A stretch of 64,000 nt of DNA, taken from positions 47,897 through 111,896 of the forward strand of contig CAZBTX010000003.1 of the NCBI GenBank assembly GCA_964494945.1. Direction: 5' to 3'. The stretch is from an uncultured Candidatus Saccharibacteria bacterium. Its GTDB lineage: Bacteria; Patescibacteriota; Minisyncoccia; Sungbacterales; JACQCQ01. This document shows, in pieces, positions 4,354 through 62,597 of this stretch. The position numbers and the translations under genes were made by a program. Numbering within the stretch: position 1 is the first letter of the stretch; each line of letters opens with the position of its first letter. A model generated the notes under the pieces. That model was not told where the DNA came from and ran no database searches. It saw only the letters and a program-made list of their open reading frames with translations.

Positions 4354-4427
4354 CCCCCACACCAGAACGTGGGCTTATAGTATTTGCTTGATTGCTTTCG
4401 GCAATCTGCCCACGTTTGGTGTGGGGG
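4354..4427. mobile_element. MITE-like inverted-repeat element, copy 1. Arms CCCCCACACCAGAACGTGGGC (4354-4374) and GCCCACGTTTGGTGTGGGGG (4408-4427) with a 33-bp interior. The right arm lies inside the last codons of nusA and the interior contains the nusA stop.
   Basis: Near-perfect 20-bp inverted repeat seen directly. Same terminal motif as elements at 11835-11931, 20336-20651 and 59998-60095. Confidence 0.6.
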
Positions 4428-7896: not shown

Positions 7897-7977
7897 AAAC
7901 AAGCGACATGAAACAAGCGACAAGCGACAAGTATTCATATCAGCCATGTCACATGTCCCTTGTTGCATGCTACTAAT

Positions 7978-9192: not shown

Positions 9193-9198
9193 TAAGTC

Positions 9199-10299
9199 AT
9201 GCTCTTTGCTCCCGTGAGAACATTAGCCAAACGCCTGTTGTCGGTTCCGATAGTGGGGCTGGATATTTCCGACCGCACCGTAAAATTTATACGTTTTAGC
9301 CGGCACCGTCTGCGTGTCAAGGTTGAGAGCTATGGCAGTGTCGCGATTGAAGAAGGAGTAGTGGTGGGCGGCGAGATAAAAAAACCGGAAATTCTCGTAC
9401 CCCAATTGGCCGCGCTTAAACTGCAAAGCGGCGGAATCTTCCGGGGCAGGTTTGTAGTCGCCTCACTCCCCGAAGAAAAAAGTTTTCTGCGCATCATTCA
9501 AGTGCCGCGGGTAAAAGTGGAAAAGCTCCAGAACGCCGTGCGCTGGGAATTAGAGGGGAATATTCCCATCGCCCCGGAAGAAATTTACTTTGATTACGAG
9601 GCGGTGCCGTCATTGGATGAGAAGCCGGATCACTTTGATGTTCTGACGATAGCTTTCCCGCGGACGATCGTTGACACTTACGTTTCCGTTTTGCGCCAGG
9701 CAGGATTTATACCCCTAGCTCTTGAATTGGAGTCCCAGTCCATCGCGAGAGCCCTTGTTGACAGAAAAGACCTTAGTACGCCGAGGGTCTTTGTGGACAT
9801 CGGGGCTTCTCGCACGAGTTTTGTTTTAGTGGGTGGCGGAACCATCATTCTTACTTCCACCATTCAGCTTTCCGGCGTGGAGTTTAACAAAGCCATTATG
9901 CGGGCCCTCAATGTGTCCTATGAAGAAGCTGAAGAGATCAAAAAGAAAGATGGGCTTCGTGAAGATGTCAATGGCGGAAAAGTGGCGGTTGTCCTAAAGC
10001 CGTTTCTTGAGACACTGTCGGATGAGATTGAAAAGCAAATAGAATTCTATCGCGATCATTTATCGGAGCATCACGGCACGTCCCGCGACATAGAATCCAT
10101 AGTTCTTACGGGCGGGGATTCCAGCTTAATAGGACTTGATGCTTATTTGGCCCGGGCGCTTAAAAAACCGGTACTGATGGCGAATTCATTCGCCTCGCTC
10201 GGAACGGCCTTCGGCGATTATATGCCGCCCATTACCCAAAAAGACGCCATGCAATTCACGACTGCCATCGGTCTTGCGCTTCGCGATATGGATATATAA
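9199..10299 (+). CDS. pilM: Type IV pilus assembly protein PilM (actin-like ATPase fold)
   Basis: Begins ...IVGLDISDRTVKFI; length and order (pilM-pilN-pilO) are typical. Confidence 0.8.
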   Translation: MLFAPVRTLAKRLLSVPIVGLDISDRTVKFIRFSRHRLRVKVESYGSVAIEEGVVVGGEIKKPEILVPQLAALKLQSGGIFRGRFVVASLPEEKSFLRIIQVPRVKVEKLQNAVRWELEGNIPIAPEEIYFDYEAVPSLDEKPDHFDVLTIAFPRTIVDTYVSVLRQAGFIPLALELESQSIARALVDRKDLSTPRVFVDIGASRTSFVLVGGGTIILTSTIQLSGVEFNKAIMRALNVSYEEAEEIKKKDGLREDVNGGKVAVVLKPFLETLSDEIEKQIEFYRDHLSEHHGTSRDIESIVLTGGDSSLIGLDAYLARALKKPVLMANSFASLGTAFGDYMPPITQKDAMQFTTAIGLALRDMDI

Positions 10300-10346
10300 C
10301 CCCTCAATAACAAATTCCTAATTCCTAATTTCTAAATAATTACGCC

Positions 10347-10892
10347 GTGATCTTATTCCAGCCCAATTTGCTGCCGCCCCAAGTTCGCGACGAAACGCGA
10401 TACGCGGTGATGTCGCGCGTGGTCGCGCGTCTCGGCGTGATATTCGCGGTTCTTGCCGTATTCTTTGCCGTTTTGCTTTTGCCTTCGTTCATCTTAGTCA
10501 GTTTGCAGAAGAACGAAATTTTGCGACAAGTGGAATTTGAAGAGGCCAATCCGTTAACGCATCGCGTCAACGAAGTTGACGGCAGGGTGGACAAGGCCAA
10601 TAAGCAAATCCTCGGCTTGAAAAATAACCTTTTGGGTCAAGATACGCTTTTTTCAATGCTCTCGGCAGTGCTTGCCGACTCGCCTGAGGGCGTCAGTTTC
10701 CAGCATTTTATTTTTGACAGGGGAGAGAAAACGCTAAGTTTGGCGGGCAAGGCCAAAACCCGGGCGAGCGTTTTGGAATTGGATACGCGGCTTAAAAAAC
10801 TGCCGTTGGCGGAGAAAGTTGAACTGCCGCTTGCGAGCCTAGTGCGCGAAACCGATACTGATTTTACCATACGGATTTTATTGAAATTATGA
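10347..10892 (+). CDS. pilN: PilN-like pilus assembly protein; GTG start, single N-terminal TM
   Basis: N-terminal '...NLLPPQVR' motif characteristic of PilN, then a TM helix; stop overlaps the pilO start (ATGA). Confidence 0.7.
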   Translation: MILFQPNLLPPQVRDETRYAVMSRVVARLGVIFAVLAVFFAVLLLPSFILVSLQKNEILRQVEFEEANPLTHRVNEVDGRVDKANKQILGLKNNLLGQDTLFSMLSAVLADSPEGVSFQHFIFDRGEKTLSLAGKAKTRASVLELDTRLKKLPLAEKVELPLASLVRETDTDFTIRILLKL

Positions 10893-11449
10893 CACATTCC
10901 AGCGGACTTCTTGGTTTTATAAAGACCCTGCTAATTACACTCATAGCTCTTGTGGCTTTGGGGTATTTGCTGCCATATCGGATATTTTCTGCGATTGGGT
11001 CGTCATCAGGCCAAATTCTGGAGGCATATACCAAGCTTGCCCGCATTGATATGGCCAAGCTTTCCGCGCGCCGGAACCAGCAAATGCTTGCAGAAAACGA
11101 GCAGAAAATCGCGCGCGTGAACACGACTTTTTTCTCACCCGAAAATCCCTTGCCGCTCATAGAGCATTTGGAAGCGTTGGCGAAATCCGCTCAAGTGGAA
11201 CTGAAAATCAATTTAGTGCAAATTCCCGGGTCGGAATTTCCCGACTTTCAGCTTTTGGTTTCCGGCGTCACCCCACAAATTTTCTCGTTTCTCCGCATGC
11301 TGGAAAACGGGGATAAGGTAATTGTTGTGAGTACTGCTTCATTTGATAAATTGGGTCCGCAAGAGCTTGCCTCCGCGGGCGGCAAGAGCGGCGTCAGGCC
11401 TCCTCCGGAACGCTTAACGATAACGGTGCGTGGATTGCTCACGAAATAA
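10889..11449 (+). CDS. pilO: PilO-like pilus assembly protein
   Basis: Position after pilN, single TM, coiled-coil region; translational coupling to pilN. Confidence 0.65.
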   Translation: MTHSSGLLGFIKTLLITLIALVALGYLLPYRIFSAIGSSSGQILEAYTKLARIDMAKLSARRNQQMLAENEQKIARVNTTFFSPENPLPLIEHLEALAKSAQVELKINLVQIPGSEFPDFQLLVSGVTPQIFSFLRMLENGDKVIVVSTASFDKLGPQELASAGGKSGVRPPPERLTITVRGLLTK

Positions 11450-11486
11450 ACTTATGCTTTTGCCTTTCTCACAATACTTAAATAAT

Positions 11487-11753
11487 ATGAAGCGCCCCTC
11501 ACTTACTTTAAGTACCGCGCTTGAGATTGTTATTGTCGCAGTAGGACTTCTTTTTGCAACGGCGATAGTGTGGGCGGCACTCGTCTATTACCGTAATACG
11601 CTGCCTTTGGTGGAAAATATGCCTCTCGCGAATTTCAAGCCGCGTGAGCTGAACATTCCCGACCTTGATCGGGTAATAAAATTGCTGGATGCGCGCCGGT
11701 CTCAATTTACCGGCTCTTCCACCCCACCCGATGTCTTGAACGTGTTTCGTTGA
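11487..11753 (+). CDS. Small membrane protein, 88 aa, last gene of the pilMNO unit (PilP-like position)
   Basis: ATG at 11487 (MKRPSLTL...), one TM helix; the longer track ORF starts upstream. Confidence 0.5.
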   Translation: MKRPSLTLSTALEIVIVAVGLLFATAIVWAALVYYRNTLPLVENMPLANFKPRELNIPDLDRVIKLLDARRSQFTGSSTPPDVLNVFR

Positions 11754-11834
11754 TTTTAAAAGTCAAATTGATTTTCTCCGCGGTTCCCGATACAATTCCG
11801 TCTGCATTTGTATCCCTCCCCGTAGTTCAACTTG

Positions 11835-11931
11835 CCCCCACACCAATCCCCTCGTAGCTCAATGGACAGAGCAGCGCTCTTCTAAGGCGTTGATGAGGGT
11901 TCGATTCCTTCCGAGGGGATTGGTGTGGGGG
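11835..11931. mobile_element. MITE-like inverted-repeat element, copy 2, enclosing tRNA-Arg(TCT). Arms CCCCCACACCAATCCCCTCG / CGAGGGGATTGGTGTGGGGG are a perfect 20-bp pair whose innermost 7 bp form the tRNA acceptor stem.
   Basis: Seen directly; same CCCCCACACCA terminus as the other copies. Confidence 0.6.
11848..11919 (+). tRNA. tRNA-Arg (anticodon TCT); begins with a C1-G72 pair; no encoded CCA
   Basis: Manual cloverleaf: acceptor CCCCTCG/CGAGGGG, U8, D-arm GCTC-AATGGACA-GAGC, anticodon loop CTTCTAA, T-arm GAGGG-TTCGATT-CCTTC. Confidence 0.7.
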
Positions 11932-11946
11932 TGAAGACAGAACTCC

Positions 11947-11990
11947 GGACTTCTAAGCTCTTGATCGAGGTTCGATTCCTCGCGAGGGGA
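11947..11990 (+). pseudogene. Partial duplicate of a tRNA 3' half (anticodon loop TTCTAAG, T-arm CGAGGTTCGATTCCTCG, acceptor CGAGGGGA)
   Basis: Aligns with the 3' half of the tRNA at 11848-11919, with substitutions; no matching 5' half. Confidence 0.5.
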
Positions 11991-12063
11991 CACTTTAGAA
12001 AAATTATGGAATTGCACCGATAAAAACCGCAAAAGAACCCAAATTCTAAATCATAATTTTTTC

Positions 12064-12312
12064 ATGCTTTATACACTCAAACCGCACGCGCGAATGCGTA
12101 TGCGAGAGAGAAAAATTACTGAACGTATCATTAAAGACGTACTCGACAATCCCACTAAGATCGAATATGATACAAAAGGTAGAGTGTTATTCAAGAAACT
12201 TTATCAGAATAAAGGAAAAGAACGCCTTGTACTTATTGTAGGCGAAAGACGAGGAAATTTAACGGAAATTATTACGATAATAGACACAACTAAGGTTAAA
12301 AAATATCTATGA
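12064..12312 (+). CDS. DUF4258-family protein (putative toxin of a two-gene toxin-antitoxin-like pair)
   Basis: 82 aa; '...HARMRMRERKITERIIKDVLDNP' matches the DUF4258 N-terminal signature; about 33% GC; overlaps the next gene by 4 nt. Confidence 0.55.
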   Translation: MLYTLKPHARMRMRERKITERIIKDVLDNPTKIEYDTKGRVLFKKLYQNKGKERLVLIVGERRGNLTEIITIIDTTKVKKYL

Positions 12313-12545
12313 ACAAAAAAAACATAAAAATCTTATATGATAAAAATAGTCAAGTTCTTTCTTTAGAAATTAGGAGGGGGGAAAGTGTTGACTCTGATAT
12401 TCAGGACAACGTGGTACTTGATTATGATAAAAGGGGCAAAATCGTCAGAATCAATCTCTACGATTTTAGTTTTGATCAATTTCGATCTAAACGTTCGGCG
12501 CTCAAAAAGTTCTCTCGCCAGCTCCTTTTATCGCCACGGCGATAA
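12309..12545 (+). CDS. DUF2283-family protein (putative antitoxin partner of DUF4258)
   Basis: 78 aa; 'LSLEIRRGE...VVLDYDKRGKIVRINLYD' matches DUF2283; ATGA overlap with the upstream gene. Confidence 0.55.
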   Translation: MNKKNIKILYDKNSQVLSLEIRRGESVDSDIQDNVVLDYDKRGKIVRINLYDFSFDQFRSKRSALKKFSRQLLLSPRR

Positions 12546-12774
12546 AAACCGCCAAAGAACCCGTGAAAAACATCGGCGGGAACTATATTTTGAATTTGCT
12601 TGCACTTGAGTATAGTCGAAGTGGGGGACGGAAAAATTTTCATAAGGATCTTATACGAGAGGTAATAGAAGTGCTGATTTTTTGTTGCTATTGACTTTTG
12701 CGAATGTTTATTCTATACCGTAAACAGTAGTTCAATCCCCTAAATAGCCGTCAACAGACGGCAAGGAGGAGCTC

Positions 12775-13311
12775 ATGATCAGCCGACACACTCTCGAAGG
12801 ACACATGGATGTTCGGGAAGTAAAGGTGAGGCCGGCCATATATCACCTGGTCGGTCCAACCACCGAACGGATGCCGGTGATGACGGGCGAACGTCCGATG
12901 AACTGGGGCTGGGAGAAGCTCTCGGAGCTTTCCGAGATCGCCGGGACCCGAGGCACCGATCTGGTGATGGAGTTTATCTGCATCAGGCCCTGGCGCCTCG
13001 GAAGCAGAGAAGGTGGTAGTATCACACTCGCTATCCCCGACTCCCCAGATGGGTTCGTCATGTATGGCAGAGGCGAGAAGTTTCTAACTCGGGGCTGCTG
13101 GGGGAGCGGGCCCCTCTACACTGTCGCGATCGAGGAAGCCGAGTTTCGGTCGTACCTAGACAAGATGATCGCCAGTCATGAGGTTTTTGTGCCGGCCGGA
13201 TGGGCGATCGCGGTCCTTGAGGACATGATGAAGATCCGCCGCCGCAGGGATGATCAGCGACACAATGACGAGGAGCGGCGGCGACGTGAAGAGGCTTCTC
13301 AGTTCGGCTAA
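12775..13311 (+). CDS. Hypothetical 178-aa protein, high-GC (about 60%), family unknown
   Basis: AAGGAGGAGCTC then ATG; candidate promoter TTGACT-N17-TATACC about 100 nt upstream; own GC-rich terminator. Confidence 0.6.
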   Translation: MISRHTLEGHMDVREVKVRPAIYHLVGPTTERMPVMTGERPMNWGWEKLSELSEIAGTRGTDLVMEFICIRPWRLGSREGGSITLAIPDSPDGFVMYGRGEKFLTRGCWGSGPLYTVAIEEAEFRSYLDKMIASHEVFVPAGWAIAVLEDMMKIRRRRDDQRHNDEERRRREEASQFG

Positions 13312-13345
13312 AGGAAAGGCGTGCCAGCGCCGAGCAACAACTTCT

Positions 13346-13380
13346 GACGAAGTACCTGGCAGTACTTCGTCTTTATTTTT
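13346..13380 (+). terminator. Rho-independent terminator (GACGAAGTAC-CTGGCA-GTACTTCGTC then TTTATTTTT)
   Basis: Perfect 10-bp stem followed by T-run, 35 nt after the stop of 12775..13311. Confidence 0.75.
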
Positions 13381-13543
13381 ACGCGAATTTGCCGCCACAT
13401 CCTTTGTTAAAGCTACGGAAGGGCAAAGCAAAGAAAAACTTGCCTGTCCGTCTCGGGCGGAAAAATTTGATGGTTCGTTCGCCTGGGGCGGGCGAACCAA
13501 CCCAGGACTTAATCAAATTTCTACTACCTGGCATACTTAATAC

Positions 13544-14437
13544 GTGGCGCGGTTTTTCGTTTTTAAAAAAACGCCGAGCAGCACTAAACCCGGATTTACG
13601 TTAATTGAAGTGCTGATAGTTATTGGCGTCTTAGCCATTATCGGCTCAATTTCGTTAGGGGCTCTTTCGCGTTTCCGGGGCGGAAGCCAAATAGATACGG
13701 CGGTTAGATCGGTTCTGGGGACATTAAGACTTGCGCAATCAAAGACCCTGGCCTCCGAGGGTGACGCATCGTATGGCGTGCATTTCGAATCAGATCGCGT
13801 AGTGCTTTTTCAGGGGCCTGTGTATTCTTCAGGCGCCAGCGGCAATCAGATAGTGCTATTACAATCTCCGGTAAGGGTTGCCGTTATCTCGCTGACCGGG
13901 GGCGCGGCAGATACACTTTTTGGGCGCGTAACGGGCACCTCCAGCGTTTCTGGGGCCGTTACTCTTTCTGACGGGACAAGAACCAGAGTCGTAACACTTG
14001 AATCGTCCGGGCAAGCCCGGGCAGAAGCGGCCGCGCTGGCAGCAGGCAATACGCGCATTACTGATACTCGCCACGTAAATTTTTTGCTTGGCTGGAGCAT
14101 TCAAAACGCCACCGCCCTGAAACTTATATTTTCCAATCCGCCTAATCCCGATACGGTGCAGTCAATCGGCATGAGTCCGTATTTCAACGCCGACAAATCC
14201 TCCTTTGACTGGAGCGGTACAGTGAACGTCAACGGAGACAGCCAGACGCTCCGCGTCCACACCGTTTCGCTGGATGCGGTCAATACCCATCTCTCAATTC
14301 ACCGCGATCGCGGCCTTAACGATAAGGCAGTCGCAATCTTTATTACCGACGGCGGCTTTGATAAGGAGATTGTGAGCTACACTGCCGCCGGTACGTCCAC
14401 CGCCGGCATTTATGGCGGGACCATGACGGTGCAGTAA
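13544..14437 (+). CDS. Type IV pilin-like protein (prepilin class III signal: ...KPG|FTLIEVLIVIGVLAII); GTG start
   Basis: N-methylation/prepilin-peptidase motif G-FTLIE plus hydrophobic helix; Ser/Thr/Gly-rich globular domain. Confidence 0.75.
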   Translation: MARFFVFKKTPSSTKPGFTLIEVLIVIGVLAIIGSISLGALSRFRGGSQIDTAVRSVLGTLRLAQSKTLASEGDASYGVHFESDRVVLFQGPVYSSGASGNQIVLLQSPVRVAVISLTGGAADTLFGRVTGTSSVSGAVTLSDGTRTRVVTLESSGQARAEAAALAAGNTRITDTRHVNFLLGWSIQNATALKLIFSNPPNPDTVQSIGMSPYFNADKSSFDWSGTVNVNGDSQTLRVHTVSLDAVNTHLSIHRDRGLNDKAVAIFITDGGFDKEIVSYTAAGTSTAGIYGGTMTVQ

Positions 14438-14477
14438 AAATCCTAATTTCTAATATCTAATTTCTAGGCAAATCCCA

Positions 14478-15041
14478 ATGATTAAAATTACAAACTCAAA
14501 ACACAGATTTAAGAAATTTGAATTTAGAATTTTGAATTTGTTTAGGATTTCGGATTTAGGATTTAGAGTTTCCGCATATGGGGGTTTCGGTTTGATTGAG
14601 GTTATTATCACCTCGGCCTTGATCTCGCTGGTGCTGGGCGCCTTTATTCAAGTGGCCAATGTTTCGCTTAAACTCCTGCAAAACGAAAAATATACTCTGG
14701 AAGCGTCTTATCTTTTGGAAGAAGGCATAGAGGGGTTGCGGGTGATCCGCGACAGCGGCTGGGACGCCAATATTGCGCCTTTGGCCAACGGTACCAGCTA
14801 CTATCTGCTTGCGGCTTCAACCTATTCCTTAACCGCCGTGCCCCCGCCGTTTATCAACGGGCGCTATATGCGCACGATTGTCTGGGGCGCGGTAAATCGC
14901 GATGCCAACGACCGCATCGCGTCTGCTGGGACGCTTGACCCCGGTACGCGGCAAGCAACCGTTACCGTCGCCTGGTCAAATCGCCAGGCCACCACATCGG
15001 TCCAGTCGGTTATTTATCTTACGAATTTTAGGCAGGACTAG
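14478..15041 (+). CDS. Pseudopilin/minor pilin (motif ...GG|FGLIEVIITSALISL). Start uncertain; possibly an internal TTG giving a shorter leader.
   Basis: Prepilin-type N-terminal cleavage/methylation motif; 5' part of the ORF overlaps AT-rich repeats. Confidence 0.65.
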   Translation: MIKITNSKHRFKKFEFRILNLFRISDLGFRVSAYGGFGLIEVIITSALISLVLGAFIQVANVSLKLLQNEKYTLEASYLLEEGIEGLRVIRDSGWDANIAPLANGTSYYLLAASTYSLTAVPPPFINGRYMRTIVWGAVNRDANDRIASAGTLDPGTRQATVTVAWSNRQATTSVQSVIYLTNFRQD

Positions 15042-15114
15042 CTATGTTCAAGCATTATTTCCGCCCATTGGGTTTCACCCCGTTAGAAATTTCTAAAATG
15101 TGCTGTTTAGTATC

Positions 15115-15681
15115 ATGAGGTTTTATCCCAGGAAAGAAAACCACATTTCCTCACCAGCTCTTGCGGGATTTCTAACGGGGTTCACGCTTATTGAGATCAT
15201 GGTCTATGTTGCCATCTTGGCGGTAATTTCGGCGTTCCTTTTGCAGACGCTCATTTCTTTTTCGGCGGTCTACCGCAAAGTCCAGGCGGAACGCGATGTG
15301 CTGGCCAATGCCCGCGGCGCCATGGAAACGCTGGGTCTGGAAATCCGCGGCGCTAAGAATGTTTATACTCCCACATCCGCTCTCTCGGCGACCACAAGCC
15401 AACTGTCGCTCGCAACTTCACTAAGTTCTAATGTGAACGAGGCGTTAACGTACGTTGATTTCTACGTTGATAATAAGCGCTTGTATTCAAAGCGCGAAGG
15501 CGCCGCAGCTTCTCCCATAACTTCGGAGAACGTGGAAGTCGCTGAATTTTTAGTGGAGCGCGTAACGGCTGGAACACGCGAATCAGCGCGGATAACGCTG
15601 ACACTCACTTCCGCGCTTCGCGGCCCGTTCCAGGCCTCCTCAACCATTACCGCCGCTTTTACGCCCAGAGGCAATTACTAA
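15115..15681 (+). CDS. Pseudopilin/minor pilin (motif ...LTG|FTLIEIMVYVAILAVI)
   Basis: ATG at 15115 in frame; prepilin motif G-FTLIE. Confidence 0.7.
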   Translation: MRFYPRKENHISSPALAGFLTGFTLIEIMVYVAILAVISAFLLQTLISFSAVYRKVQAERDVLANARGAMETLGLEIRGAKNVYTPTSALSATTSQLSLATSLSSNVNEALTYVDFYVDNKRLYSKREGAAASPITSENVEVAEFLVERVTAGTRESARITLTLTSALRGPFQASSTITAAFTPRGNY

Positions 15682-15724
15682 CAAAATTTTCAATTATCAA
15701 TTTACAATTTTCAATCAAATCAAA

Positions 15725-17032
15725 ATGTACCAATATTCCAAACATTTGAAAATTGAATCATTGAAAATTCATTGGAAATTAGGAATTGAAAATTGGAAAT
15801 TTCAGAAGGGGTTCGCCGCCTTGACCTCGTTAATATTTGTTCTGGGCATTTCGCTGGCGTTGATTTCGGGTTTCGTGTTTGTAACACTTCGCGAGGTAAA
15901 AACTGCCAGGAACTTCTCGCAGTCGATGAGGAGTTATTACGCCGCGGAGAGCGGTGTGGAAGACGCGATATATCGCTTCATTACGGGGAAGCAAATTACG
16001 TCCGGCGAAACTTTGGCTACCGGCACTGCCACCGGAACCATCTCCATCGCCACTCTTGGCGCGGAGAAAACCATCACTGTTTCCGGCGTCGCCCCCAACC
16101 AGTACTATCGCAAAGTGGAAGCCAAGATCGCTTCCCAGGTTATGGATGTCGGGTTTCATTACGGAGTGCAAGTGGGGTACGGCGGTCTGACTTTGGGCGA
16201 TGGTTCGGAAATCGTGGGCGACGTCTTTTCTAACGGCAAGATTAAAGGCGCCGGCAAGGCAAAAAGCACGGTAACGGGTACAGCGGAAGTTGCCGGCACC
16301 AGCACTATAGAAGATATTAAAATAAACCAAAACGCCTACGCCTATAGCTTTGAAGATTGCGCTATCGGCGGCGTGGCGAATTATTTCAATTCCTTTTCCG
16401 AATGCACCGCCGGCGGAGGCGCGGTAGTAATGAGCCAGCAAATACCGGCGCAGAATTTTCCCATCTCGCAGGACGACATTACCGCGTGGGAGAACGATGC
16501 TTCCGCCGGCGGCTATACGTCAAGCTACTCGCTTGGCAATAACACTTCCGGTTCGCTCGGCCCCAAGCATATTACCGGGGACGTTACCCTGGGCAATAGT
16601 TCCACACTGACTCTTGGCGGAACGGTTTGGATAAGCGGCACGCTAACATTCGGCAACACGGATAAAATAAAACTTGATTCGTCGTATGGAGCAAACGGCG
16701 GGATAATTATCGTGGACGGTGCGGTTGATATGAGCAATAAACCCATCCTAGAGGGTTCGGGACAAGCCGGGAGCTATTTGCTGCTTATCTCAAATTATAG
16801 AGGCGCGGGGTACGCTATCAATGTGGGGAACAGCGCCTCAAGTTCCGTGTATTTCGCGCCCAACGGTACGATCAATTTAGGCAACGGCATAGATTTGCTG
16901 GAGGCAACGGCATACAAGATTATCATCGGCAATAATGCCTCGGTCACGTATCAGCAGGGGCTTCTGGATACAAATTTCACTTCCGGTCCCACCGCAAACT
17001 GGTCAGTAAAAAGTTGGAAGGAGGTTCAGTAA
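15725..17032 (+). CDS. Large pilus-associated protein, 435 aa: prepilin-like N-terminus (QKG|FAALTSLIFVLG...) then Gly/Thr/Ser/Asn-rich repetitive, beta-helix-like domain. Candidate tip/minor pilin (PilX/PilY-like role).
   Basis: N-terminal hydrophobic helix after a KG motif but lacking Glu5; repetitive G-x-x-T/S segments. Confidence 0.55.
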   Translation: MYQYSKHLKIESLKIHWKLGIENWKFQKGFAALTSLIFVLGISLALISGFVFVTLREVKTARNFSQSMRSYYAAESGVEDAIYRFITGKQITSGETLATGTATGTISIATLGAEKTITVSGVAPNQYYRKVEAKIASQVMDVGFHYGVQVGYGGLTLGDGSEIVGDVFSNGKIKGAGKAKSTVTGTAEVAGTSTIEDIKINQNAYAYSFEDCAIGGVANYFNSFSECTAGGGAVVMSQQIPAQNFPISQDDITAWENDASAGGYTSSYSLGNNTSGSLGPKHITGDVTLGNSSTLTLGGTVWISGTLTFGNTDKIKLDSSYGANGGIIIVDGAVDMSNKPILEGSGQAGSYLLLISNYRGAGYAINVGNSASSSVYFAPNGTINLGNGIDLLEATAYKIIIGNNASVTYQQGLLDTNFTSGPTANWSVKSWKEVQ

Positions 17033-20335: not shown

Positions 20336-20651
20336 ACCCCCACACCAAAACGCTTAGGCGGAGATAGATTCTTTTATCCTTTTTAATAATTGCTGTAAAG
20401 CGTGAGCGCGGAGTTTTAAGTTTTTCTCTCTGTACCTTGCCTCTTTCTCACTAGAGTACGCTTCGTAGTATACCAGTTTTAGTGGTTTCCGAAATTTAGT
20501 GGAAAATACCGCCCCAGAATTATGTAAAAGGATTCTTTTCTTTAGGTTATTCGTTGAGCCTATATAAAGCTTTTTGTCTTTTAGGCTTTTTAGGATGTAA
20601 ACAAAGAACATAGATAAATTTTAGCATATTTAAGCGTCTTGGTGTGGGGGT
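20336..20651. mobile_element. Inverted-repeat-bounded element enclosing a GIY-YIG nuclease gene. Arms ACCCCCACACCAAAACGC (20336-20353) and GCGTCTTGGTGTGGGGGT (20634-20651), 17/18 complementary. Same terminus family as 4354-4427, 11835-11931 and 59998-60095.
   Basis: Seen directly; the gene occupies the interior exactly (stop 1 nt from the left arm, start 22 nt from the right arm). Confidence 0.6.
20354..20611 (-). CDS. GIY-YIG nuclease family protein (COG2827 / YhbQ-like, 85 aa)
   Basis: 'FFVYILKSLKDKKLYIGSTNNLKKRILLHNSG...LVYYEAYSSEKEARYREKNLK' shows the GIY-(10)-YIG, Arg, His/Asn and Glu core motifs. Confidence 0.8.
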   Translation of the reverse strand: MFFVYILKSLKDKKLYIGSTNNLKKRILLHNSGAVFSTKFRKPLKLVYYEAYSSEKEARYREKNLKLRAHALQQLLKRIKESISA

Positions 20652-32247: not shown

Positions 32248-32967
32248 CTATTTTTTAGGGTAGCCGATGGCTAACTGGTAAAATACGGTCTCTTCTTCCG
32301 CATCTAAATCAAGTTCGCGCTCAACCGCGGCGTGATCAGTCATCCTGCCAATAGCTAGAACTCCCAATCCCAAAGCCGTCCCCACAAGGTAAATATTCTG
32401 CCCGATATGACCGCCCTCAAGGATTCCAAGTTTATATCCAAGATTGCCGTATTTTCCCGCGGTTCGTTCGCCGACAAACGACAGCAAAATCAGCGCCGGA
32501 GCTGTTTTGTAGAAATCATAAGTCGTGGCTTGTCGAATTTTCTCAGCGTCTGCGCCGTGAATCAGTTCTAGCGAATGTTCCAGAAAGTTGTAGTGATACG
32601 CGCCCTTCTTAACACCTTTTCCATTAAATAACGCGACATAAATTTCAACTGGGAATCTTGCGCCGCCGGAGGGATAGGGCCGGCGGAACGAATTTCCCGT
32701 TGCGCTTAATTTGTGGATTGGGCCCGCGCTCCAAAAAAGCAATCTGCCCAATACGTTTTGAGATATGGGTTGGTTAGAAAAATTTCTTTCCGTTCTCCTC
32801 TTCAATAAGGCCTCGGCCAAGTTTAAACTGGGGAATGATTTGAATTTGGACAAAAAAATGCGCGGCGAGCGCGGATATTCTTTAAAGGAAATATTTTTCC
32901 ATTCCGTCGCTTCAGGGTCAATAGCCGGCCTGTCTTTGTAAAAAAAATCAAAAAATGGATCTGGCAT
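32248..32967 (-). CDS. SagB-type dehydrogenase (nitroreductase superfamily; McbC-like oxidase of azoline-forming RiPP pathways)
   Basis: Nitroreductase-fold motifs and the '...RPYPSGGARFP...' signature of SagB/ThcOx dehydrogenases. Confidence 0.7.
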   Translation of the reverse strand: MPDPFFDFFYKDRPAIDPEATEWKNISFKEYPRSPRIFLSKFKSFPSLNLAEALLKRRTERNFSNQPISQNVLGRLLFWSAGPIHKLSATGNSFRRPYPSGGARFPVEIYVALFNGKGVKKGAYHYNFLEHSLELIHGADAEKIRQATTYDFYKTAPALILLSFVGERTAGKYGNLGYKLGILEGGHIGQNIYLVGTALGLGVLAIGRMTDHAAVERELDLDAEEETVFYQLAIGYPKK

Positions 32968-32990
32968 AAGACTTCCGGTGTTACCTTTTA

Positions 32991-34481
32991 TTATAAAAAT
33001 GGGTGAGGTATGACATTAAACTCCTCTTCTTTTTTAGGTCGTTGAAATATCCCCATCTTTATCGGCGCTTCATGAAGGCGCTGCGAGCCGAGACACTTAA
33101 AATGTTCGTTAAGATACAACGGGTAAAGACCGGCAACCAGCGCCATTACCACACGGAGTCCGGCTTGACTTGCGAGCGAACCGGTAATATCGGTAATGTA
33201 AGCACTAAGTCCATAATTAGTCAGGATCTTCTTAAGTTCTTTCAGTTTAGCGGCATCGTCTTTCCCCTCATGGCCATTTCTCTCCAGTATCTCAGTTTGC
33301 CCCAAAAACATAAATTCGGCGTCCCGGTCGCGTCTTTCGTCGCACCAATAAATTCTGCGCTCGTTAAGGTTTTCTATAGCCGGCGCTTTTTGCTCAACTC
33401 GTTTAATTTCTTCCACGGTTGTTGTTGAAAGAAATCCCGCGCGAAAGCCGTCAGTCAGCGCGGCAACCAGCGCTTTCTCTTTATCAAGATCACAACGCGG
33501 GGATAGATAAAGTCGCGGCAACCCCGGCGCATGAGGCCTAATCACCGCCATAAATACCGGCACCCTTAGATCAGTCGTGATATCAAGCAGGGATACGTTG
33601 ATAGCATATTTTTCATAAAGGTTTAAAAGCGCGTTGATTTCCAGATGGCCGAGTTTGCGGAGGGCTGTCAATTCTACTTGGGGAGGAGAAATCTGATTAA
33701 GCCAGTGAACCATCAGAGCGTCGCGTTCTATGACCTCGCATAGGGCGTGATATGCGGCCCCGTCCCAGGAAATTCCGGCGGCCCCGCCGTTGGAAATGGT
33801 CTGGCGGATACGTGGCTCTTCCGATAAAAAATCATATTTGATATGAGCCAGCTGTGCTGGGACCAGATATATCCCATTTCCTTCCAGAGAAACCGATTTT
33901 ACCCAGCGGAAGGTGGAATCACTTTTAATTCGATGCGGCGCATATTCCGGCCTTTCGAGCTGGGCGGAGGAAAAATGATTGAACAGCCGCGGGTCAATGG
34001 CTTTATTGTGACCGAGCTTTTCAAAAGAACCGGTGACAAATCTTTGATAATCCGGGGTAGCAAGCGTATGCCATTCAATAAGTTCGGCAACCGCCTTAGT
34101 AGCCGCAATTTCCGGATCCAGAGCGTAACCGGAAGCATGAACTTCGTTGCTTGAAAGAATGGAGAAAGCCGGGATATGCGGCCATCCGGCTATTGGTTGA
34201 GGAAAAAAGATTTTCTCAATCACTCCTTTGCGGGCAAGTTCACGCAGTATGCGCTGGAAACGAGCGGGAATATTATCCCACGGGGACAAGGAGCTTTTAA
34301 CATATATTTCTCCGCCCATAAGCACTTCTAGGGAAAGGAAGAAATTTTTGGTCAAGCGTTCAAGAAAATTATTGGAGGATTGAGGCCGACCAAACGGCCG
34401 TTTGGACCAAACAGCCACTCTTTCTTTCGCGTAATCAGCTAGCCGCTTGCCGCGAATGAATTGGATTTTGTTTTCGGTCAT
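32991..34481 (-). CDS. YcaO-domain protein (ATP-dependent cyclodehydratase/amide-activating enzyme) with a roughly 110-aa N-terminal extension
   Basis: YcaO core ('HASGYALDPEIAATKAVAELIEWH...', 'GGAAGISWDGAAYHALCEVIERD'); 23 bp upstream of the SagB-type gene. Confidence 0.7.
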   Translation of the reverse strand: MTENKIQFIRGKRLADYAKERVAVWSKRPFGRPQSSNNFLERLTKNFFLSLEVLMGGEIYVKSSLSPWDNIPARFQRILRELARKGVIEKIFFPQPIAGWPHIPAFSILSSNEVHASGYALDPEIAATKAVAELIEWHTLATPDYQRFVTGSFEKLGHNKAIDPRLFNHFSSAQLERPEYAPHRIKSDSTFRWVKSVSLEGNGIYLVPAQLAHIKYDFLSEEPRIRQTISNGGAAGISWDGAAYHALCEVIERDALMVHWLNQISPPQVELTALRKLGHLEINALLNLYEKYAINVSLLDITTDLRVPVFMAVIRPHAPGLPRLYLSPRCDLDKEKALVAALTDGFRAGFLSTTTVEEIKRVEQKAPAIENLNERRIYWCDERRDRDAEFMFLGQTEILERNGHEGKDDAAKLKELKKILTNYGLSAYITDITGSLASQAGLRVVMALVAGLYPLYLNEHFKCLGSQRLHEAPIKMGIFQRPKKEEEFNVIPHPFL

Positions 34482-59472: not shown

Positions 59473-59849
59473 CCCAACTCATCAATTATTCGGAAGCATT
59501 AACCAGACGCATCATGCGCCGGGTTTATTTTACGTGGTTTGTGAAGCGCGTGGCTCCGACCATGGCTTTGCAGACGGCGTCACTGGCTCTTCTGCTTATC
59601 GGAGTTCATGAGTTTATTTCGGTGAAATTCGTTTTAGCCAATGCCGTGGATTCCATCTCTAGCGTGCCGTCGTTGGTCAGTTTCACCACGAGTGCCGTGG
59701 GTAATGCAGGATTCATCCCGCAATTATTGCTCGGCGCTTCAACGTTTCTCGGGCTCTTGATAGTTCGCGATGTTCTTAAAGTATTCCGTAGCCGCACGTT
59801 TGTTCTTCAAGGAAAGATAACACCGATGGCAGAAAGAATTTATCGTTAG
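59469..59849 (+). CDS. Putative anti-sigma factor / membrane protein co-transcribed with the ECF sigma (ATGA overlap)
   Basis: Position and overlap; 2-3 TM helices; no conserved anti-sigma domain recognised. Confidence 0.45.
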   Translation: MTQLINYSEALTRRIMRRVYFTWFVKRVAPTMALQTASLALLLIGVHEFISVKFVLANAVDSISSVPSLVSFTTSAVGNAGFIPQLLLGASTFLGLLIVRDVLKVFRSRTFVLQGKITPMAERIYR

Positions 59850-59915
59850 GCCTTCTATTTTGGAGGTCTGCCCATGCGCCTTGCCGGCGTGTTGGTAGAA
59901 AAAGGTCGTTTGTGT

Positions 59916-59957
59916 AATAAACAATCCCCGCCCTTTAAAGGGCGGGGATTGTTTATT
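59916..59957. terminator. 42-bp perfect palindrome (AATAAACAATCCCCGCCCTTT|AAAGGGCGGGGATTGTTTATT) after the sigma/anti-sigma pair
   Basis: Seen directly. Confidence 0.6.
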
Positions 59958-59997
59958 GAAAAAAGCGGTTTTTAGTGCTAGATTTGGTTTTGTTTTA

Positions 59998-60095
59998 CCC
60001 CCACACCAGAAAGCTCCACCCCTCAGGGCGGAGATGAATGGAGTTATGAAATAGGTCATTAGAAATGCCGTGTCCCTTAGGGCGTGGTGTGGGGG
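59998..60095. mobile_element. MITE-like inverted-repeat element, copy 4 (CCCCCACACCAG ... TGGTGTGGGGG, interior about 75 bp sharing GGCGGAGAT with copy 3), abutting the tRNA-Ser fragment
   Basis: Same termini as the other three copies. Confidence 0.55.
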
Positions 60096-60102
60096 TTTAC
60101 TG

Positions 60103-60263
60103 GGAGGGTTGGCTCGAGTGGGTCAAAAGCCAAGGTCTTGGCTTTTGACGGGAAATTAGCGCAGATTTATCGGAGCGTATAATTTCCCGGGGTTTCGCTG
60201 GCGAGACGCGAGAGCTTCCGCAATAGCGGAGCTCCCGTCTTAGGGAAGCGAAACAAGGCGCCG
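60103..60263 (+). pseudogene. Disrupted tRNA-Ser copy: 19-nt 5' end (GGAGGGTTGGCTCGAGTGG) and a later internal piece (AAGGCGCCGCACTCG) separated by about 125 bp of hairpin-rich insert
   Basis: Both pieces are identical to the corresponding parts of the intact tRNA at 60425-60512. Confidence 0.55.
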
Positions 60264-60424
60264 CACTCGCCCCGCACTAAAAATTTGGAAGCGTGCCAGA
60301 GTGGGCAAAATCTGAATGTTTTCAGGTTTTGCCGGAAAATAGTGTAAATTTATTGAAACGTAATTTTCCGTGGGTTTCGCCGGGGGGCGAAACAATGGGC
60401 GAGAGGTCTCGTCCCGCACTAAGC

Positions 60425-60512
60425 GGAGGGTTGGCTCGAGTGGACTAAGGCGCCGCACTCGAAATGCGGTTGGGGAGAAATCCCCTCAGAGGTTCGAATC
60501 CTCTACCCTCCG
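60425..60512 (+). tRNA. tRNA-Ser (anticodon CGA), class II with long variable arm. Flanked by a perfect 12-bp inverted repeat (CCCGCACTAAGC / GCTTAGTGCGGG) that extends the acceptor stem.
   Basis: Acceptor GGAGGGT/ACCCTCC, anticodon loop CTCGAAA, variable stem GGGGA-GAAA-TCCCC, T-arm AGAGG-TTCGAAT-CCTCT. Confidence 0.75.
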
Positions 60513-60599
60513 CTTAGTGCGGGATTGCGATTTGTTCCTGAAAATTTGCCCCGTAAATTTGTCAGACAAATCGGGAAAAAACCGTTATACCGGAAACGG

Positions 60600-60708
60600 T
60601 ATCGGAGGTTCGAATCCTCCCGCTTCCGTAGTCAAATTTTAGTGCGGGGTAAAAAATGCGGTTGGGGAGCAATCCTCTCGCAGGTTCGAATCCTGCACCC
60701 TCCGCAAG
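60600..60708 (+). pseudogene. Two further partial tRNA 3' halves: 60600-60632 (T-arm GGAGGTTCGAATCCTCC plus acceptor 3') and 60655-60708 (variable arm, T-arm GCAGGTTCGAATCCTGC, ACCCTCCG)
   Basis: The second aligns base-for-base with the 3' half of tRNA-Ser(CGA), with compensatory changes. Confidence 0.55.
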
Positions 60709-60848
60709 TCAGGATTTTGCAAATGGACAAAGGAAGCCTCGCGGCGCGAGACGCGCCGCTCGGCTAGGATTTGAAAGGGCTTTTTGTGCGAAAACGAAAA
60801 GGATTTATCGATGAAGGGCGAAAGAAATTTTTTCATATTAAAATAATC

Positions 60849-61550
60849 ATGAATAAAAAAATAATCATATCAATTATCTTCTTGGTCTTACTAAGCTCAG
60901 TTAGTTTTGTATCGGCAATTTCTTCTGGTTATAATCTTGAAATTGCAAACATTAATATTCAGAAGGGTTGGAATTTGGTTCCTTTAATTTATGATTATCA
61001 TATAATTGCTGAAGATTCAGACATAAAGCTTCAAGATATTAAGGTAGCCTACATGTACCCTCCGATTGAAAATAAATATGTTAAATATATTGAAAAGGGT
61101 AGAGTTCTTCGAGGAAATACCGGTCATTTTTGGATAAGCGAAGAAGAGATAAGAAAGATCATTGCTTCAAAACAATATTTAATTGACTCAGAAGCAGACG
61201 CAAGGAATTTAACGTTCGGTATGTCTTCTTGGGTTTATATCAATAAAACAGGGAATATAAAGATTAATATTGGTCATGATAGCGATGGGGATAAAATCCT
61301 TATAAGCGGATGGAGCTTTTTAATCATAACTCCCGAGATGATTGGAAAAAACTTGAGCCAAATTAAAGGGGGCTGCGATATTATAAAATCTTATGCATGG
61401 TGGGCCGAAAAGCAAACTTGGGACTTAATTGATTTAAATGACGCTCCATTTGACAACAACCTTATGGGTATGGGTATAATTGTAAAAGTTTCAAATGATT
61501 GTGTATTGAGTAGCGCCAGCCCCACCATTCCTCCACCACTGCCAAATTAA
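60849..61550 (+). CDS. Secreted protein, 233 aa, very AT-rich (about 31% GC), signal peptide; C-terminus ...SASPTIPPPLPN
   Basis: N-terminal MNKKIIISIIFLVLLSSVSFVSA signal; paralog of 61719..62447. Confidence 0.6.
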   Translation: MNKKIIISIIFLVLLSSVSFVSAISSGYNLEIANINIQKGWNLVPLIYDYHIIAEDSDIKLQDIKVAYMYPPIENKYVKYIEKGRVLRGNTGHFWISEEEIRKIIASKQYLIDSEADARNLTFGMSSWVYINKTGNIKINIGHDSDGDKILISGWSFLIITPEMIGKNLSQIKGGCDIIKSYAWWAEKQTWDLIDLNDAPFDNNLMGMGIIVKVSNDCVLSSASPTIPPPLPN

Positions 61551-61561
61551 AAGTTGAGAAT

Positions 61562-61708
61562 ATGAAAAAACTAATTTTAATTATCCTAATTATAGGAGTT
61601 GTAATAGGATTGGGGCTATATTTGTGGCGTTTTGGCTTGTCTATCCCAGGGACAGATACTTTTTCAACTGAAGGGACCATTCCTCAACCGCCGGCATTAC
61701 CAGAATAA
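61562..61708 (+). CDS. Small 48-aa membrane peptide (MKKLILIILIIGVVIGLGLYLWRFGLSIPGTDTFSTEGTIPQPPALPE), sharing the proline-rich C-terminal motif of its neighbours
   Basis: Hand-translated; below the ORF-track cutoff. Confidence 0.4.
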   Translation: MKKLILIILIIGVVIGLGLYLWRFGLSIPGTDTFSTEGTIPQPPALPE

Positions 61709-61718
61709 CTTTAAATTT

Positions 61719-62447
61719 ATGAAGAAACTCTTCCTTTTCACATTATTTTTATTACTTGTAGCCAGCACTGTGTATGCGGCTAGTTCTGCTTTTTACTTTG
61801 TTTCTGCCAAGGAAAATGTAGCAGTAATATTTTTTAGCTATGATCAATGGAACCTTGTTCCATTTACTTCGACGGCCTGGTCTAAAATTATCACTAAGGA
61901 TAGTTTATCCGCTGAACTTAAAGAGCGTTTTAATGCGGCCGAGGTAGATATAAAGGAATCCGATATCACCGCCGCATTTGTCTTTGATTCTAAAGATCGA
62001 AAATATGTTCAAGTTGCTGGACGCGGAACGGATCAAAGTAAATTGCAGACAATTGATTACGACGATGTATCGCGTTATCCAGCCGTGTGGATCTATGTTA
62101 AAGCGGGAAGCGATAAACAATATGCTAAAAATATGTGGTTGAAGATTAACCCCGAACGAATGCCGAAAATAACGGACTTTACAATGAAACGCGGGTGGAA
62201 TTTCGTCTGGTTAACTCCTGACATCACTATGATATCTATGGCGTCGCTGAATGAATACAAAGGAACTTGCTCGATTGACAAAGTAGCGATATGGGAAGGC
62301 AAATGGAATGTTCATAATTACACTGCCGAGGTCGCACAAGATTTAAAAAATGGAACTCCTGGACCAATTTTTCTACTGAAAGTCATGAGCGATTGCCAAT
62401 TGCGGTATGAACCAGTGGTGCCTCAAGCCCCCTCTCTTCCTGAATAA
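61719..62447 (+). CDS. Secreted protein, 242 aa, paralog of 60849..61550; C-terminus ...YEPVVPQAPSLPE
   Basis: Signal peptide MKKLFLFTLFLLLVASTVYA; shared internal motifs (KGWNLVPL/RGWNFVWL, GGCDIIKSYAWW/GTCSIDKVAIWEG, SNDCVLS/SDCQLR). Confidence 0.6.
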   Translation: MKKLFLFTLFLLLVASTVYAASSAFYFVSAKENVAVIFFSYDQWNLVPFTSTAWSKIITKDSLSAELKERFNAAEVDIKESDITAAFVFDSKDRKYVQVAGRGTDQSKLQTIDYDDVSRYPAVWIYVKAGSDKQYAKNMWLKINPERMPKITDFTMKRGWNFVWLTPDITMISMASLNEYKGTCSIDKVAIWEGKWNVHNYTAEVAQDLKNGTPGPIFLLKVMSDCQLRYEPVVPQAPSLPE

Positions 62448-62597
62448 ATTATCTCTCGCCAAAGAAAAACTTGAAATTGTTAATGTTCGCGGTGGAGCTG
62501 CGCGGATTTCTCGCCCTCCCGACCCGAGCCCGCCGCAGGCGGGCGAGGATAGAATTCCGTTCGAGCTATATTCAAGATACACCGCTAGGAAAATTTT

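Follow-up and report, generated by a model that had tools for sequence, protein, structure and literature searches.

Concentrically nested tRNA genes in a Candidatus Saccharibacteria contig, probably arising by insertion of palindrome-bounded mobile cassettes

Short non-coding units bounded by inverted repeats, with a protein-coding relative that shares their ends, are represented by miniature inverted-repeat transposable elements (MITEs) and REPIN/RAYT-type repeats, and phage T4 provides, in SegB, a free-standing GIY-YIG homing endonuclease whose gene lies in a tRNA gene cluster. Archaeal tRNA genes are disrupted in several ways, including multi-intron, split and tri-split forms, and their introns transpose between tRNA genes (Fujishima et al., summarised in PMC10714607); the same source attributes introns with homing endonucleases to the rRNA genes of bacteria of the candidate phyla radiation (CPR) (Tsurumaki et al. 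2022, cited in PMC10714607). Here we describe a tRNA-Ser(CGA) locus at about 60 kb in a 64,000-nt stretch (hereafter, the window) of contig CAZBTX010000003.1 from an uncultured Candidatus Saccharibacteria bacterium, in which three tRNA genes are nested concentrically; an outermost gene (shell A) encloses a middle gene (shell B), which in turn encloses an intact inner gene. From sequence comparison, we consider it probable that tRNA genes such as these have been nested by repeated insertion of palindrome-bounded mobile cassettes, each of which would have replaced the tRNA gene it broke.

An earlier sequence-only reading of the locus had placed an intact tRNA-Ser(CGA) at 60425-60512, with an inverted repeat prolonging its acceptor stem, and both calls were confirmed. 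ARAGORN returned a single tRNA-Ser(CGA) across the locus (60425-60513), the Rfam tRNA model scored 44.3 bits for 60425-60512, and the acceptor stem was found to be extended by a perfect inverted repeat with 20-nt arms (60412-60431 and 60505-60524), 12-13 nt of each arm lying outside the tRNA. These outside portions form the left (TCCCGCACTAAGC, 60412-60424) and right (CTTAGTGCGGGA, 60513-60524) inverted repeats of the inner cassette; CCA is not encoded at the locus.

Around the inner gene, and like it on the forward strand, lie the pieces of two further tRNA-Ser genes. Shell A, itself a tRNA-Ser(CGA), begins with exon 1 (60103-60121; the 5' strands of the acceptor and D stems and the D-loop through G18G19), is interrupted by a 133-nt D-loop insert of three hairpins (60122-60254; H1, of 13 bp, H2, and H3, GGTTTCGC..GCGAAAC with a nested hairpin) and resumes with exon 2 (60255-60269; D-stem 3' strand, anticodon-stem 5' strand and C32 U33 C34 G35); a repeat finder aligned these two exons to the inner tRNA with 19/19 and 15/15 identities, respectively. 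There follow the left inverted repeat of the outer cassette, which is of type 2 (CCCCGCACTAAAAATTTG, 60270-60287), and the first exon of the degenerate tRNA-Ser of shell B (GGAAGCGTGCCAGAGTGG, 60287-60304). The D-loop insert of shell B (60305-60393) holds three hairpins homologous to those of shell A, with compensatory differences in H1, and its exon 2 (AATGGGCGAGAGGTCTCG, 60394-60411) is degenerate and carries CUCG at the 3' end. On the far side of the inner cassette are an accessory hairpin of type-2 cassettes (TTGCGATTTGT ... ACAAATCGGGAA, 60525-60577), shell B exon 3 (60578-60628; A36-38, anticodon-stem 3' strand, variable arm, T arm and the acceptor 3' strand CGCTTCC), the right inverted repeat of the outer cassette with an extra terminal TAAA (CAAATTTTAGTGCGGGG, 60633-60653) and shell A exon 3, the 3' half of a tRNA-Ser (60654-60704). 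The partial copies reported from the letters alone were recovered with some adjustment: the 19-nt 5' copy at 60103; the internal piece, which starts at 60255 and not at 60249; two extra 3' halves, delimited by the repeat finder at 60578-60629 and 60654-60705 and 62% and 88% identical to the inner tRNA; the outer inverted repeats, whose arms by the same program (60270-60285 and 60634-60649) are a few bases off 60264 and 60640; and two copies of the GGTTTCGC...GCGAAAC hairpin module, one carrying an insert of ~49 nt instead of 40 bp.

The minimum free energy fold of the 621-nt region (-292 kcal/mol; z = -14.1 against dinucleotide shuffles) consists of three concentric cloverleaf-like layers. The acceptor of shell A pairs GGAGGGT with ACCCTCC, and shell B pairs its own 5' GGAAGCG with its own 3' CGCTTCC; the inner gene is placed in the anticodon loop of shell B, after CUCG, and shell B, together with the second inverted repeat, is placed in shell A directly after C34-G35. 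Joining of the shell A exons in silico, minus the inserts, gave a flawless 89-nt tRNA-Ser(CGA), in which the T stem (GCAGG/CCTGC) differs from that of the inner gene (AGAGG/CCTCT) at two pairs, both compensated. Shell B yielded degenerate solutions only and no clean tRNA. Only the innermost tRNA-Ser gene is intact, and it is presumed to be the working one, with shells A and B as presumed relics. The D-loop insert of shell A had no match in Rfam, and local BLAST against ~1 Mb of fetched loci (numbered below with the prefix L) found no homolog outside the window for the D-loop hairpin inserts, for the accessory hairpin or for the 76-nt cargo of a neighbouring element described below; counterparts of the accessory hairpin at the tRNA-Cys of L148-L152 were found by reading sequences fetched after that BLAST. 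Group I and group II introns, tmRNA and large structured RNAs such as GOLLD and ROOL were considered and rejected, as Rfam gave only tRNA both in 59700-61000 (E <= 10) and in eight related loci (gathering score).

Similar nests occur widely. The Ser nest is built with a type-2 repeat, CCCCGCAC...GTGCGGGG, which is the sister of a type-1 repeat found elsewhere in the window; metagenomes were scanned with a pattern covering the type-1 repeat only (CCCCCACA, a T-loop and TGTGGGGG), and at least 120 loci matched, against a handful expected by chance by our own estimate. Among the 121 matches listed, 115 enclose a tRNA recognized by ARAGORN, representing 25 anticodons, and in 63 a tRNA spanning the junction reappears once the cassette is deleted. 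Cassette size is about 100-380 bp, and the ends consist of the inverted repeat CCCC[C/G]CAC...GTG[G/C]GGGG, with an extra TRAA at one of them; beyond the fixed 8-mer, repeat positions 11, 12 and 13 are paired in 98%, 87% and 76% of elements, respectively, compared with 48-53% when partners are shuffled. A repeat-only scan of viral contigs produced seven G/C-rich, chance-like matches, none with a tRNA, and hence no link to phages. No description of nested tRNA genes, of the cassette repeat or of repeat-bounded GIY-YIG cassettes was found in the literature searched, the coverage of which was incomplete, such that this is absence of evidence only; the family is apparently widespread in CPR bacteria and undescribed.

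Junctions between cassette and outer gene cluster in the D-loop (around positions 8-20), the anticodon loop and the T-loop (around positions 52-58), and where the junction falls outside the anticodon loop, in the D- or T-loop, the outer anticodon is nearly always the same as the inner one. At 67 of 94 non-redundant loci, none of 15 inner tRNAs of a different type resembles the flanks as closely as the inner tRNA of that locus does. At one extreme the outer shells are perfect and at the other almost gone, and flank scores grade into the background, for example where only the T stem and the 3' acceptor strand are left; several shells are without the whole anticodon arm (L022, L061, L070), some carry two cassettes (L074), and outer shells split in the T-loop have lost T54-T55-C56. 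Clean tRNA-Ala(CGC) and tRNA-Pro(CGG) nests, split after C34-G35 as in the window, were present in GenBank metagenome-assembled genomes (MAGs) of Doudnabacteria, and the joined exons of the outer tRNA-Ala and tRNA-Pro of L003 form perfect cloverleaves with the right anticodon and with identity elements such as G3:U70. At L083, the outer 5' part equals the inner gene. A triple tRNA-Ala(CGC) nest with type-2 repeats was also observed (L118, 1200-1460); removal of the cassette alone leaves its middle shell with the anticodon CAC on a body bearing the Ala-identity pair G3:U70.

The perfect cloverleaves rebuilt from shell A and from the outer tRNA-Ala and tRNA-Pro of L003 are also what would be expected if the shells were interrupted tRNA genes acting at the RNA level, with the cassette as a tRNA-shaped intron, the exons ligated, and two or three tRNA-Ser obtained from each transcript; tRNA end-processing enzymes, or a cut at the foot of the repeat helix, could bring about the release. 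That the repeat helix co-varies, and that an exon is followed by a complementary leader or trailer, as in archaeal split and intron-containing tRNAs (PMC10714607), would agree with this. There is, however, no bulge-helix-bulge at the junction; the anticodon stem is followed by a 4 x 7 internal loop (CUCG / UAAAAAA) and then by a continuous 17-bp helix. Inspection of the junction by eye for a bulge-helix-bulge or a kink-turn showed that the sequences fit neither.

The frame of the cassettes tells further against an RNA-level process. It is asymmetric (NNNG-repeat...repeat-TRAA); a 4-mer on one side (CTTG, CCCG or CACG) stands where native loop bases (TTCG, or the ..TG of the D-loop) belong, and the other side carries the extra TGAA or TAAA. 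The exact reverse complement of this frame (TTYA-...-CNNN, for example TTCA...CAAG) was also found, with inner and outer tRNAs still on the same strand, such that the frame can run either with or against transcription; 50 forward and at least 11 reversed frames were counted among 102 loci, with a chance of 4e-4 each. An RNA motif would not flip in this manner. The frame 4-mers were never present in the normal tRNAs of the same contigs, indicating that the outer loops are damaged. The T-loop shells without T54-T55-C56, the shells without an anticodon arm or with the wrong anticodon on an Ala-identity body, and the many shells that are decayed or truncated also tell against it, and no splicing endonuclease or RNA ligase is present among the genes of the 64-kb window. 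We know of no such tRNA splicing or re-joining pathway in bacteria. Release and ligation of the shells as RNA is consequently judged to be unlikely.

Slightly less likely again is an origin in place, by which local tRNA duplication and gene conversion would have acted around pre-existing leader and trailer stems, the repeats being RNA-processing signals and nothing being mobile. The 34/34 identity between the 5' exons of shell A and the inner gene, and the outer 5' part of L083, both suggest conversion, and the repeats are also found as plain intergenic hairpins. Such an origin is difficult to reconcile with near-identical inner tRNAs in genomic contexts that cannot be aligned: in six locus pairs, the inner tRNAs were 97-100% identical, whereas the outer shells were 62-83% identical and the distal flanks were at the random level. 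Moreover, the cassette repeat ends are shared by several CPR phyla and also enclose a nuclease gene, the reverse-complement frame exists, duplication does not give concentric insertion into loops, and syntenic relatives are without the nest.

In those relatives of the Ser locus (L002 and L147-L154), the order sigma-70, 127-aa protein, tRNA-Ser(CGA), DUF4446, IF-2 and RbfA is retained, with one tRNA-Ser located 25-125 nt before DUF4446 and none of the AT-rich genes that follow the nest in the window. The inner tRNA of the window is 98% identical to the un-nested, native tRNA-Ser of L148, whereas the neighbouring DUF4446 proteins are only 59% identical. The T stem of shell A is that of the native tRNA-Ser of L147, L151 and L153, and the tRNA-Ser of L002 resembles shell B. 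The 5' remnant of shell B (GGAAGCGTGCCAGAGTGG) is also present upstream of the working tRNA-Ser in L151 and L153, as the sole shell trace there; in L153, it includes a D-loop insert that likewise ends in GGCGAAAC, and exon 2 of shell B in the window has a 3-nt insertion relative to it. The remnant in relatives, together with this insertion, indicates that shell B is an old, dead resident. Exact-protein look-ups returned no match for the DUF4446 protein or for the 233-aa protein encoded downstream of the nest.

The same relatives yielded other observations. A LAGLIDADG-type ORF occupies exactly the space that separates the 5' remnant of shell B from the working tRNA-Ser in L147 (2367-3353), L151 (2383-3390) and L152 (2581-3390), and further ones are found in L153 (6201-6941) and L154 (3929-4669), one of which abuts tRNA-Cys; Rfam detected no ribozyme around these ORFs. 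A tRNA-Cys(GCA) is nested with type-2 repeats at L148 (6215-6440) and also in L149-L152, and the right-hand accessory hairpin of these nests, ATTGCGATTTGT...ACAAATCGGGAA, is the same as that at 60525-60577 of the window.

The sequence-only reading had explained the fragments as att scars of islands that one after another integrated at, and excised from, the 3' end of the tRNA gene, with the AT-rich genes as the last island. Its broader premise, that foreign DNA repeatedly struck a tRNA gene and left partial copies behind, stands; the assignment to an integrase acting at the 3' end does not, and we consider it very improbable. In its favour, 3' halves do lie downstream of the intact gene, the AT-rich genes are low in GC, and the comparison of relatives showed, as had been anticipated, that none of them has these genes in the interval from tRNA-Ser to DUF4446. 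The fragments are, however, matched 5' and 3' parts of whole tRNA genes, split in loops, whose halves pair concentrically; 5' pieces are present upstream at 60103, 60255 and 60287, along with the D-loop inserts, and integrase scars would leave neither 5' copies nor such inserts. The 3' halves are separated by a mere 20-70 nt and enclose no island, and, as no tRNA-derived repeat occurs past 60705, the AT-rich genes have none at their far end. Pfam detected no integrase, recombinase or transposase domain among window ORFs of at least 120 aa and the ORFs around the locus, and the architecture, with its conserved inverted repeats, recurs in more than 100 unrelated metagenome loci. The locus is very probably one of nested mobile cassettes and not of att scars. 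Least probable of all is an artefact of MAG mis-assembly that collapsed or chained tRNA-like repeats. In its favour, short-read unitigs of three runs all stop ~95 nt after the upstream gene, but they do so at a perfect 28-nt palindrome. Against it, the structure holds together internally and shows compensatory changes, and comparable nests are present in over 100 contigs produced by many projects and assemblers, as well as in GenBank MAGs of other phyla.

Under the reading that we prefer, repeated insertion of mobile cassettes, a cassette with a complete tRNA gene would insert into an exposed loop of a tRNA gene, which at the Ser locus would be the anticodon loop, right after C34-G35. Insertion into an essential, single-copy tRNA gene would be survived only if the cargo tRNA were of the same kind, and the agreement between inner and outer anticodons would arise because only replacing cassettes survive. 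The whole nest would presumably be transcribed from the promoter region of the old tRNA gene. The GC-rich repeat may then zip up and clamp the inner tRNA in its own fold, preventing mispairing with the near-identical outer halves, and the inner tRNA would be freed by the ordinary tRNA end-processing enzymes and would receive CCA from the CCA-adding enzyme.

A candidate for the enzyme that moves these cassettes is encoded within the window. The type-1 cassette at 20337-20650 has as its sole cargo an 85-aa GIY-YIG nuclease gene (ORF 20354-20611, minus strand; PF01541, E = 2.9e-17), the product of which consists of the catalytic domain only and has the UPF0213 protein 1ZG2 as its closest solved structure. 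Homologs 60-77% identical are distributed across CPR phyla; the orthologous gene is bounded by TTCA-CCCCCACAC...GTGTGGGGG-TGAA, with both ends complete, in Sungbacteria, Woesebacteria and Buchananbacteria, and by a degenerate version of the repeat in Omnitrophota, and the bounded copies sit between housekeeping genes. A repeat half is found no more than 160 nt away from 7 of the 11 GIY-YIG ORFs of the fetched loci, compared with 2.7 expected (P = 0.003), and no repeat-bounded element of more than 350 bp with a larger ORF was found in the ~1 Mb that they comprise. It appears quite possible, if somewhat short of probable, that the GIY-YIG protein drives cassette movement. The ~310-bp repeat-bounded unit, coding solely for this stand-alone nuclease, would be the candidate autonomous member of the family, and the nuclease would supply the cut, as the likely mobilising or homing enzyme.

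Several arrangements of GIY-YIG ORFs were observed besides. The window cassette adjoins hisS, and the same arrangement at hisS occurs in a Sungbacteria MAG (L155). At L134 (1-490), a tRNA-Ser(UGA) 5' half ending in CTTG is followed by hairpins, a GIY-YIG ORF and a full tRNA-Ser(UGA); at L114 (1040-1480), a full tRNA precedes a GIY-YIG ORF and then a 3' remnant of a tRNA of the same kind; and at L111 (250-770), a GIY-YIG ORF begins 22 nt past a tRNA-Arg cassette, within the outer gene.

A number of points weigh against insertion of cassettes mobilised by this nuclease. There is no consistent target-site duplication; instead of flanking the element, the 4 nt on one side replace native loop bases. 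Direct repeats of 4-5 nt were seen at few loci only (L107, L116, L129 and window 59998), and most junctions show CNYG...TRAA and no duplication; a simple target-site-duplication model and an IS200/IS605-style target model were both tried, and neither fitted the junction table consistently. Since a filled and empty site pair of one species was not recovered, insertion is deduced by comparison and not directly seen. The mutually homologous three-hairpin D-loop inserts of shells A and B are left unaccounted for by the model. Shell A, which as the outermost shell should be the oldest relic, is flawless, with 5' exons identical to the inner gene, whereas shell B, in the middle, is degenerate and old; a flawless outer shell around a decayed one requires gene conversion, or movement of the whole shell B nest as cargo, and shell A may even be functional. 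With regard to the nuclease, the 85-aa protein has no separate DNA-binding domain such as those of I-TevI and the Seg proteins, its cassette in the window is of type 1 whereas the Ser nest has the type-2 repeat, and the link between nuclease and cassettes is an association only.

We suggest, tentatively and with less assurance than for the role of the nuclease, that these elements form a minimal class of mobile DNA in CPR bacteria, consisting of an autonomous ~310-bp GIY-YIG (UPF0213-type) unit and non-autonomous forms that carry tRNA genes, the latter spreading horizontally through single-copy tRNA genes as 'replace-what-you-break' gene drives that accumulate in tRNA-in-tRNA nests and keep overwriting host tRNA alleles. 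A more radical variant may apply to clean nests such as shell A, in which the tRNA-shaped insert would also be removed from the RNA and the outer tRNA re-joined. If this proposal is correct, a mobile element can enter an essential RNA gene and leave its host alive, thanks to a spare copy instead of splicing, and horizontal turnover affects the tRNA genes of CPR bacteria. It would also offer a role for the small, widespread UPF0213-type GIY-YIG proteins, which could recognise or cut the palindrome CCCCCACACC/GGTGTGGGGG or the loops of tRNA genes. In practical terms, nests break short-read assemblies and hide pseudo-tRNAs from tRNA finders, and they may inflate or confuse tRNA counts and codon-usage inference in MAGs.

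In the window as a whole, four properly paired type-1 elements (4354-4427, 11835-11931, 20337-20650 and 59998-60095) and two of type 2 were identified; type-1 half-sites number 8, compared with 1.2 expected, and none of 100 shuffles reached 8. The element at 59998-60095 (CCCCCACACCA ... TGGTGTGGGGG), directly upstream of the Ser nest, is flanked by TTTA/TTTA direct repeats and holds ~76 nt of non-tRNA cargo, comprising two CCCYYAGGGCG hairpins in which neither ARAGORN nor Rfam finds a tRNA; a sigma-70-like promoter match (59956-59984) precedes both it and the nest. A second nest, on the forward strand at 11814-11990, contains an intact tRNA-Arg(UCU) (11847-11920) between type-1 repeats (11835-11845 and 11921-11931; CCCCCACACCA/TGGTGTGGGGG with CTTG...TGAA flanks), placed in the D-loop of another tRNA-Arg(UCU); this outer copy is decayed, with a mismatch in the acceptor and a disrupted anticodon stem, and can be rebuilt in silico only in degenerate forms. 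The palindromic element at 4354-4427 is a long hairpin without coding cargo that overlaps the 3' end of nusA (4375-5766, minus strand); it covers the last ~16 codons and the stop, and so seems to supply the C-terminal end of NusA.

Other features of the window were noted in passing. The upstream gene is followed, at 59909-59964, by a terminator-like hairpin that is a 28-nt perfect palindrome; this gene was found only on short-read unitigs (L017-L019, from three runs), all ending ~95 nt after it at the palindrome (window ~59945), which indicates that assemblies break at such palindromes. A type IV pilus or competence-pilus cluster (6121-17032) encodes a PilB-like ATPase, PilC, PilM and several pseudopilins with N-terminal methylation, and is a possible DNA-uptake route for horizontal spread of cassettes. 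A YcaO cyclodehydratase gene lies beside a gene of the nitroreductase family (32248-34481, both minus strand), a pairing typical of clusters for azol(in)e-containing, ribosomally synthesized and post-translationally modified peptides (RiPPs).

Downstream of the nest, on the forward strand, are three AT-rich genes, encoding a 233-aa protein of secreted type (60849-61550; C-terminus PTIPPPLPN), a 48-aa membrane peptide with orthologs in L140-L146 (61562-61708; IPQPPALPE) and a 242-aa paralog of the first protein (61719-62447; VPQAPSLPE). Their AT-richness had been recognized beforehand, although their GC content is 0.34-0.41 and not about 31%, compared with 0.476 for the whole window; the paralogy of the two secreted proteins, predicted at about 235 aa each, was borne out (26% identity, E = 5e-9), as was the shared proline-rich C-terminal motif, which is kept in orthologs 71-76% identical. 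The proteins had no match in PHROGs or Pfam. Only three homologs of the 242-aa protein were found, at that 71-76% identity, and in another genomic context; their genomes encode a 49-aa membrane peptide (...VPQPPELPE) and a 238-aa protein (...VPQAPSLPE) beside an Exo_endo_phos gene, with no tRNA or cassette repeat nearby, and their DNA homology to the window is limited to 61561-62469. A two-gene module is recognizable in the window (61562-62447) and in L140 (4829-5717), pairing a membrane peptide of 48-49 aa with a secreted protein of 238-242 aa, both ending in PQxPxLPE. The motif occupies the last 8-9 residues, with no membrane helix after it, and among ~14,000 ORF segments it was confined to the AT-rich module and its orthologs; no sortase-like domain was found in the window. 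A sorting signal of sortase or exosortase type was rejected, there being no hydrophobic helix with a basic tail, no cognate enzyme in the window and no wider set of tagged proteins. The motif has thus been conserved as part of a small two-gene module that is itself movable, and the AT-rich genes form a movable module of their own, unrelated to the tRNA cassettes.

When set against the described systems, the cassettes lack the defining features of tRNA-targeting islands and of archaeal tRNA introns, and have part of those of GIY-YIG homing endonucleases and of MITEs and REPINs. Like islands and prophages with their attL and attR sites, they use a tRNA gene as a landing site, keep a working tRNA and leave displaced fragments; unlike them, they deliver a complete tRNA and not only a 3' part, land inside a loop such that 5' and 3' relics enclose the insert, and have inverted-repeat ends in place of direct att repeats, a size of ~100-380 bp and no integrase. 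With archaeal disrupted tRNAs, they share inserts in the D-, anticodon and T-loops, related inserts in many tRNA genes and a helix beside the exon ends, but they occur in Bacteria, have no bulge-helix-bulge, contain a whole tRNA of the same anticodon, show both frame orientations and sit in outer genes that decay. The CPR rRNA introns concern the same group of organisms and are likewise selfish inserts in essential RNA genes, and LAGLIDADG ORFs are present at the tRNA-Ser locus of the relatives; the cassettes differ in that no ribozyme family was detected and that rescue would come from a spare copy and not from splicing.

The resemblance to free-standing GIY-YIG homing endonucleases lies in a nuclease gene beside tRNA genes and, by analogy, in a neighbouring tRNA allele that may be preferentially inherited and spread; the cassette nuclease differs in having 85 aa and no DNA-binding domain and in being itself enclosed by repeats, and tRNA cassettes exist without it. 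As with MITEs and REPINs, there are several copies per genome, conserved terminal inverted repeats, a coding relative with the same ends and plain intergenic hairpins, but here the cargo is a tRNA gene, insertion is into the cognate tRNA gene with no regular target-site duplication, and the associated GIY-YIG protein does not belong to a known transposase family. There is, in our view, a substantial chance that the cassettes represent a new class of selfish DNA.

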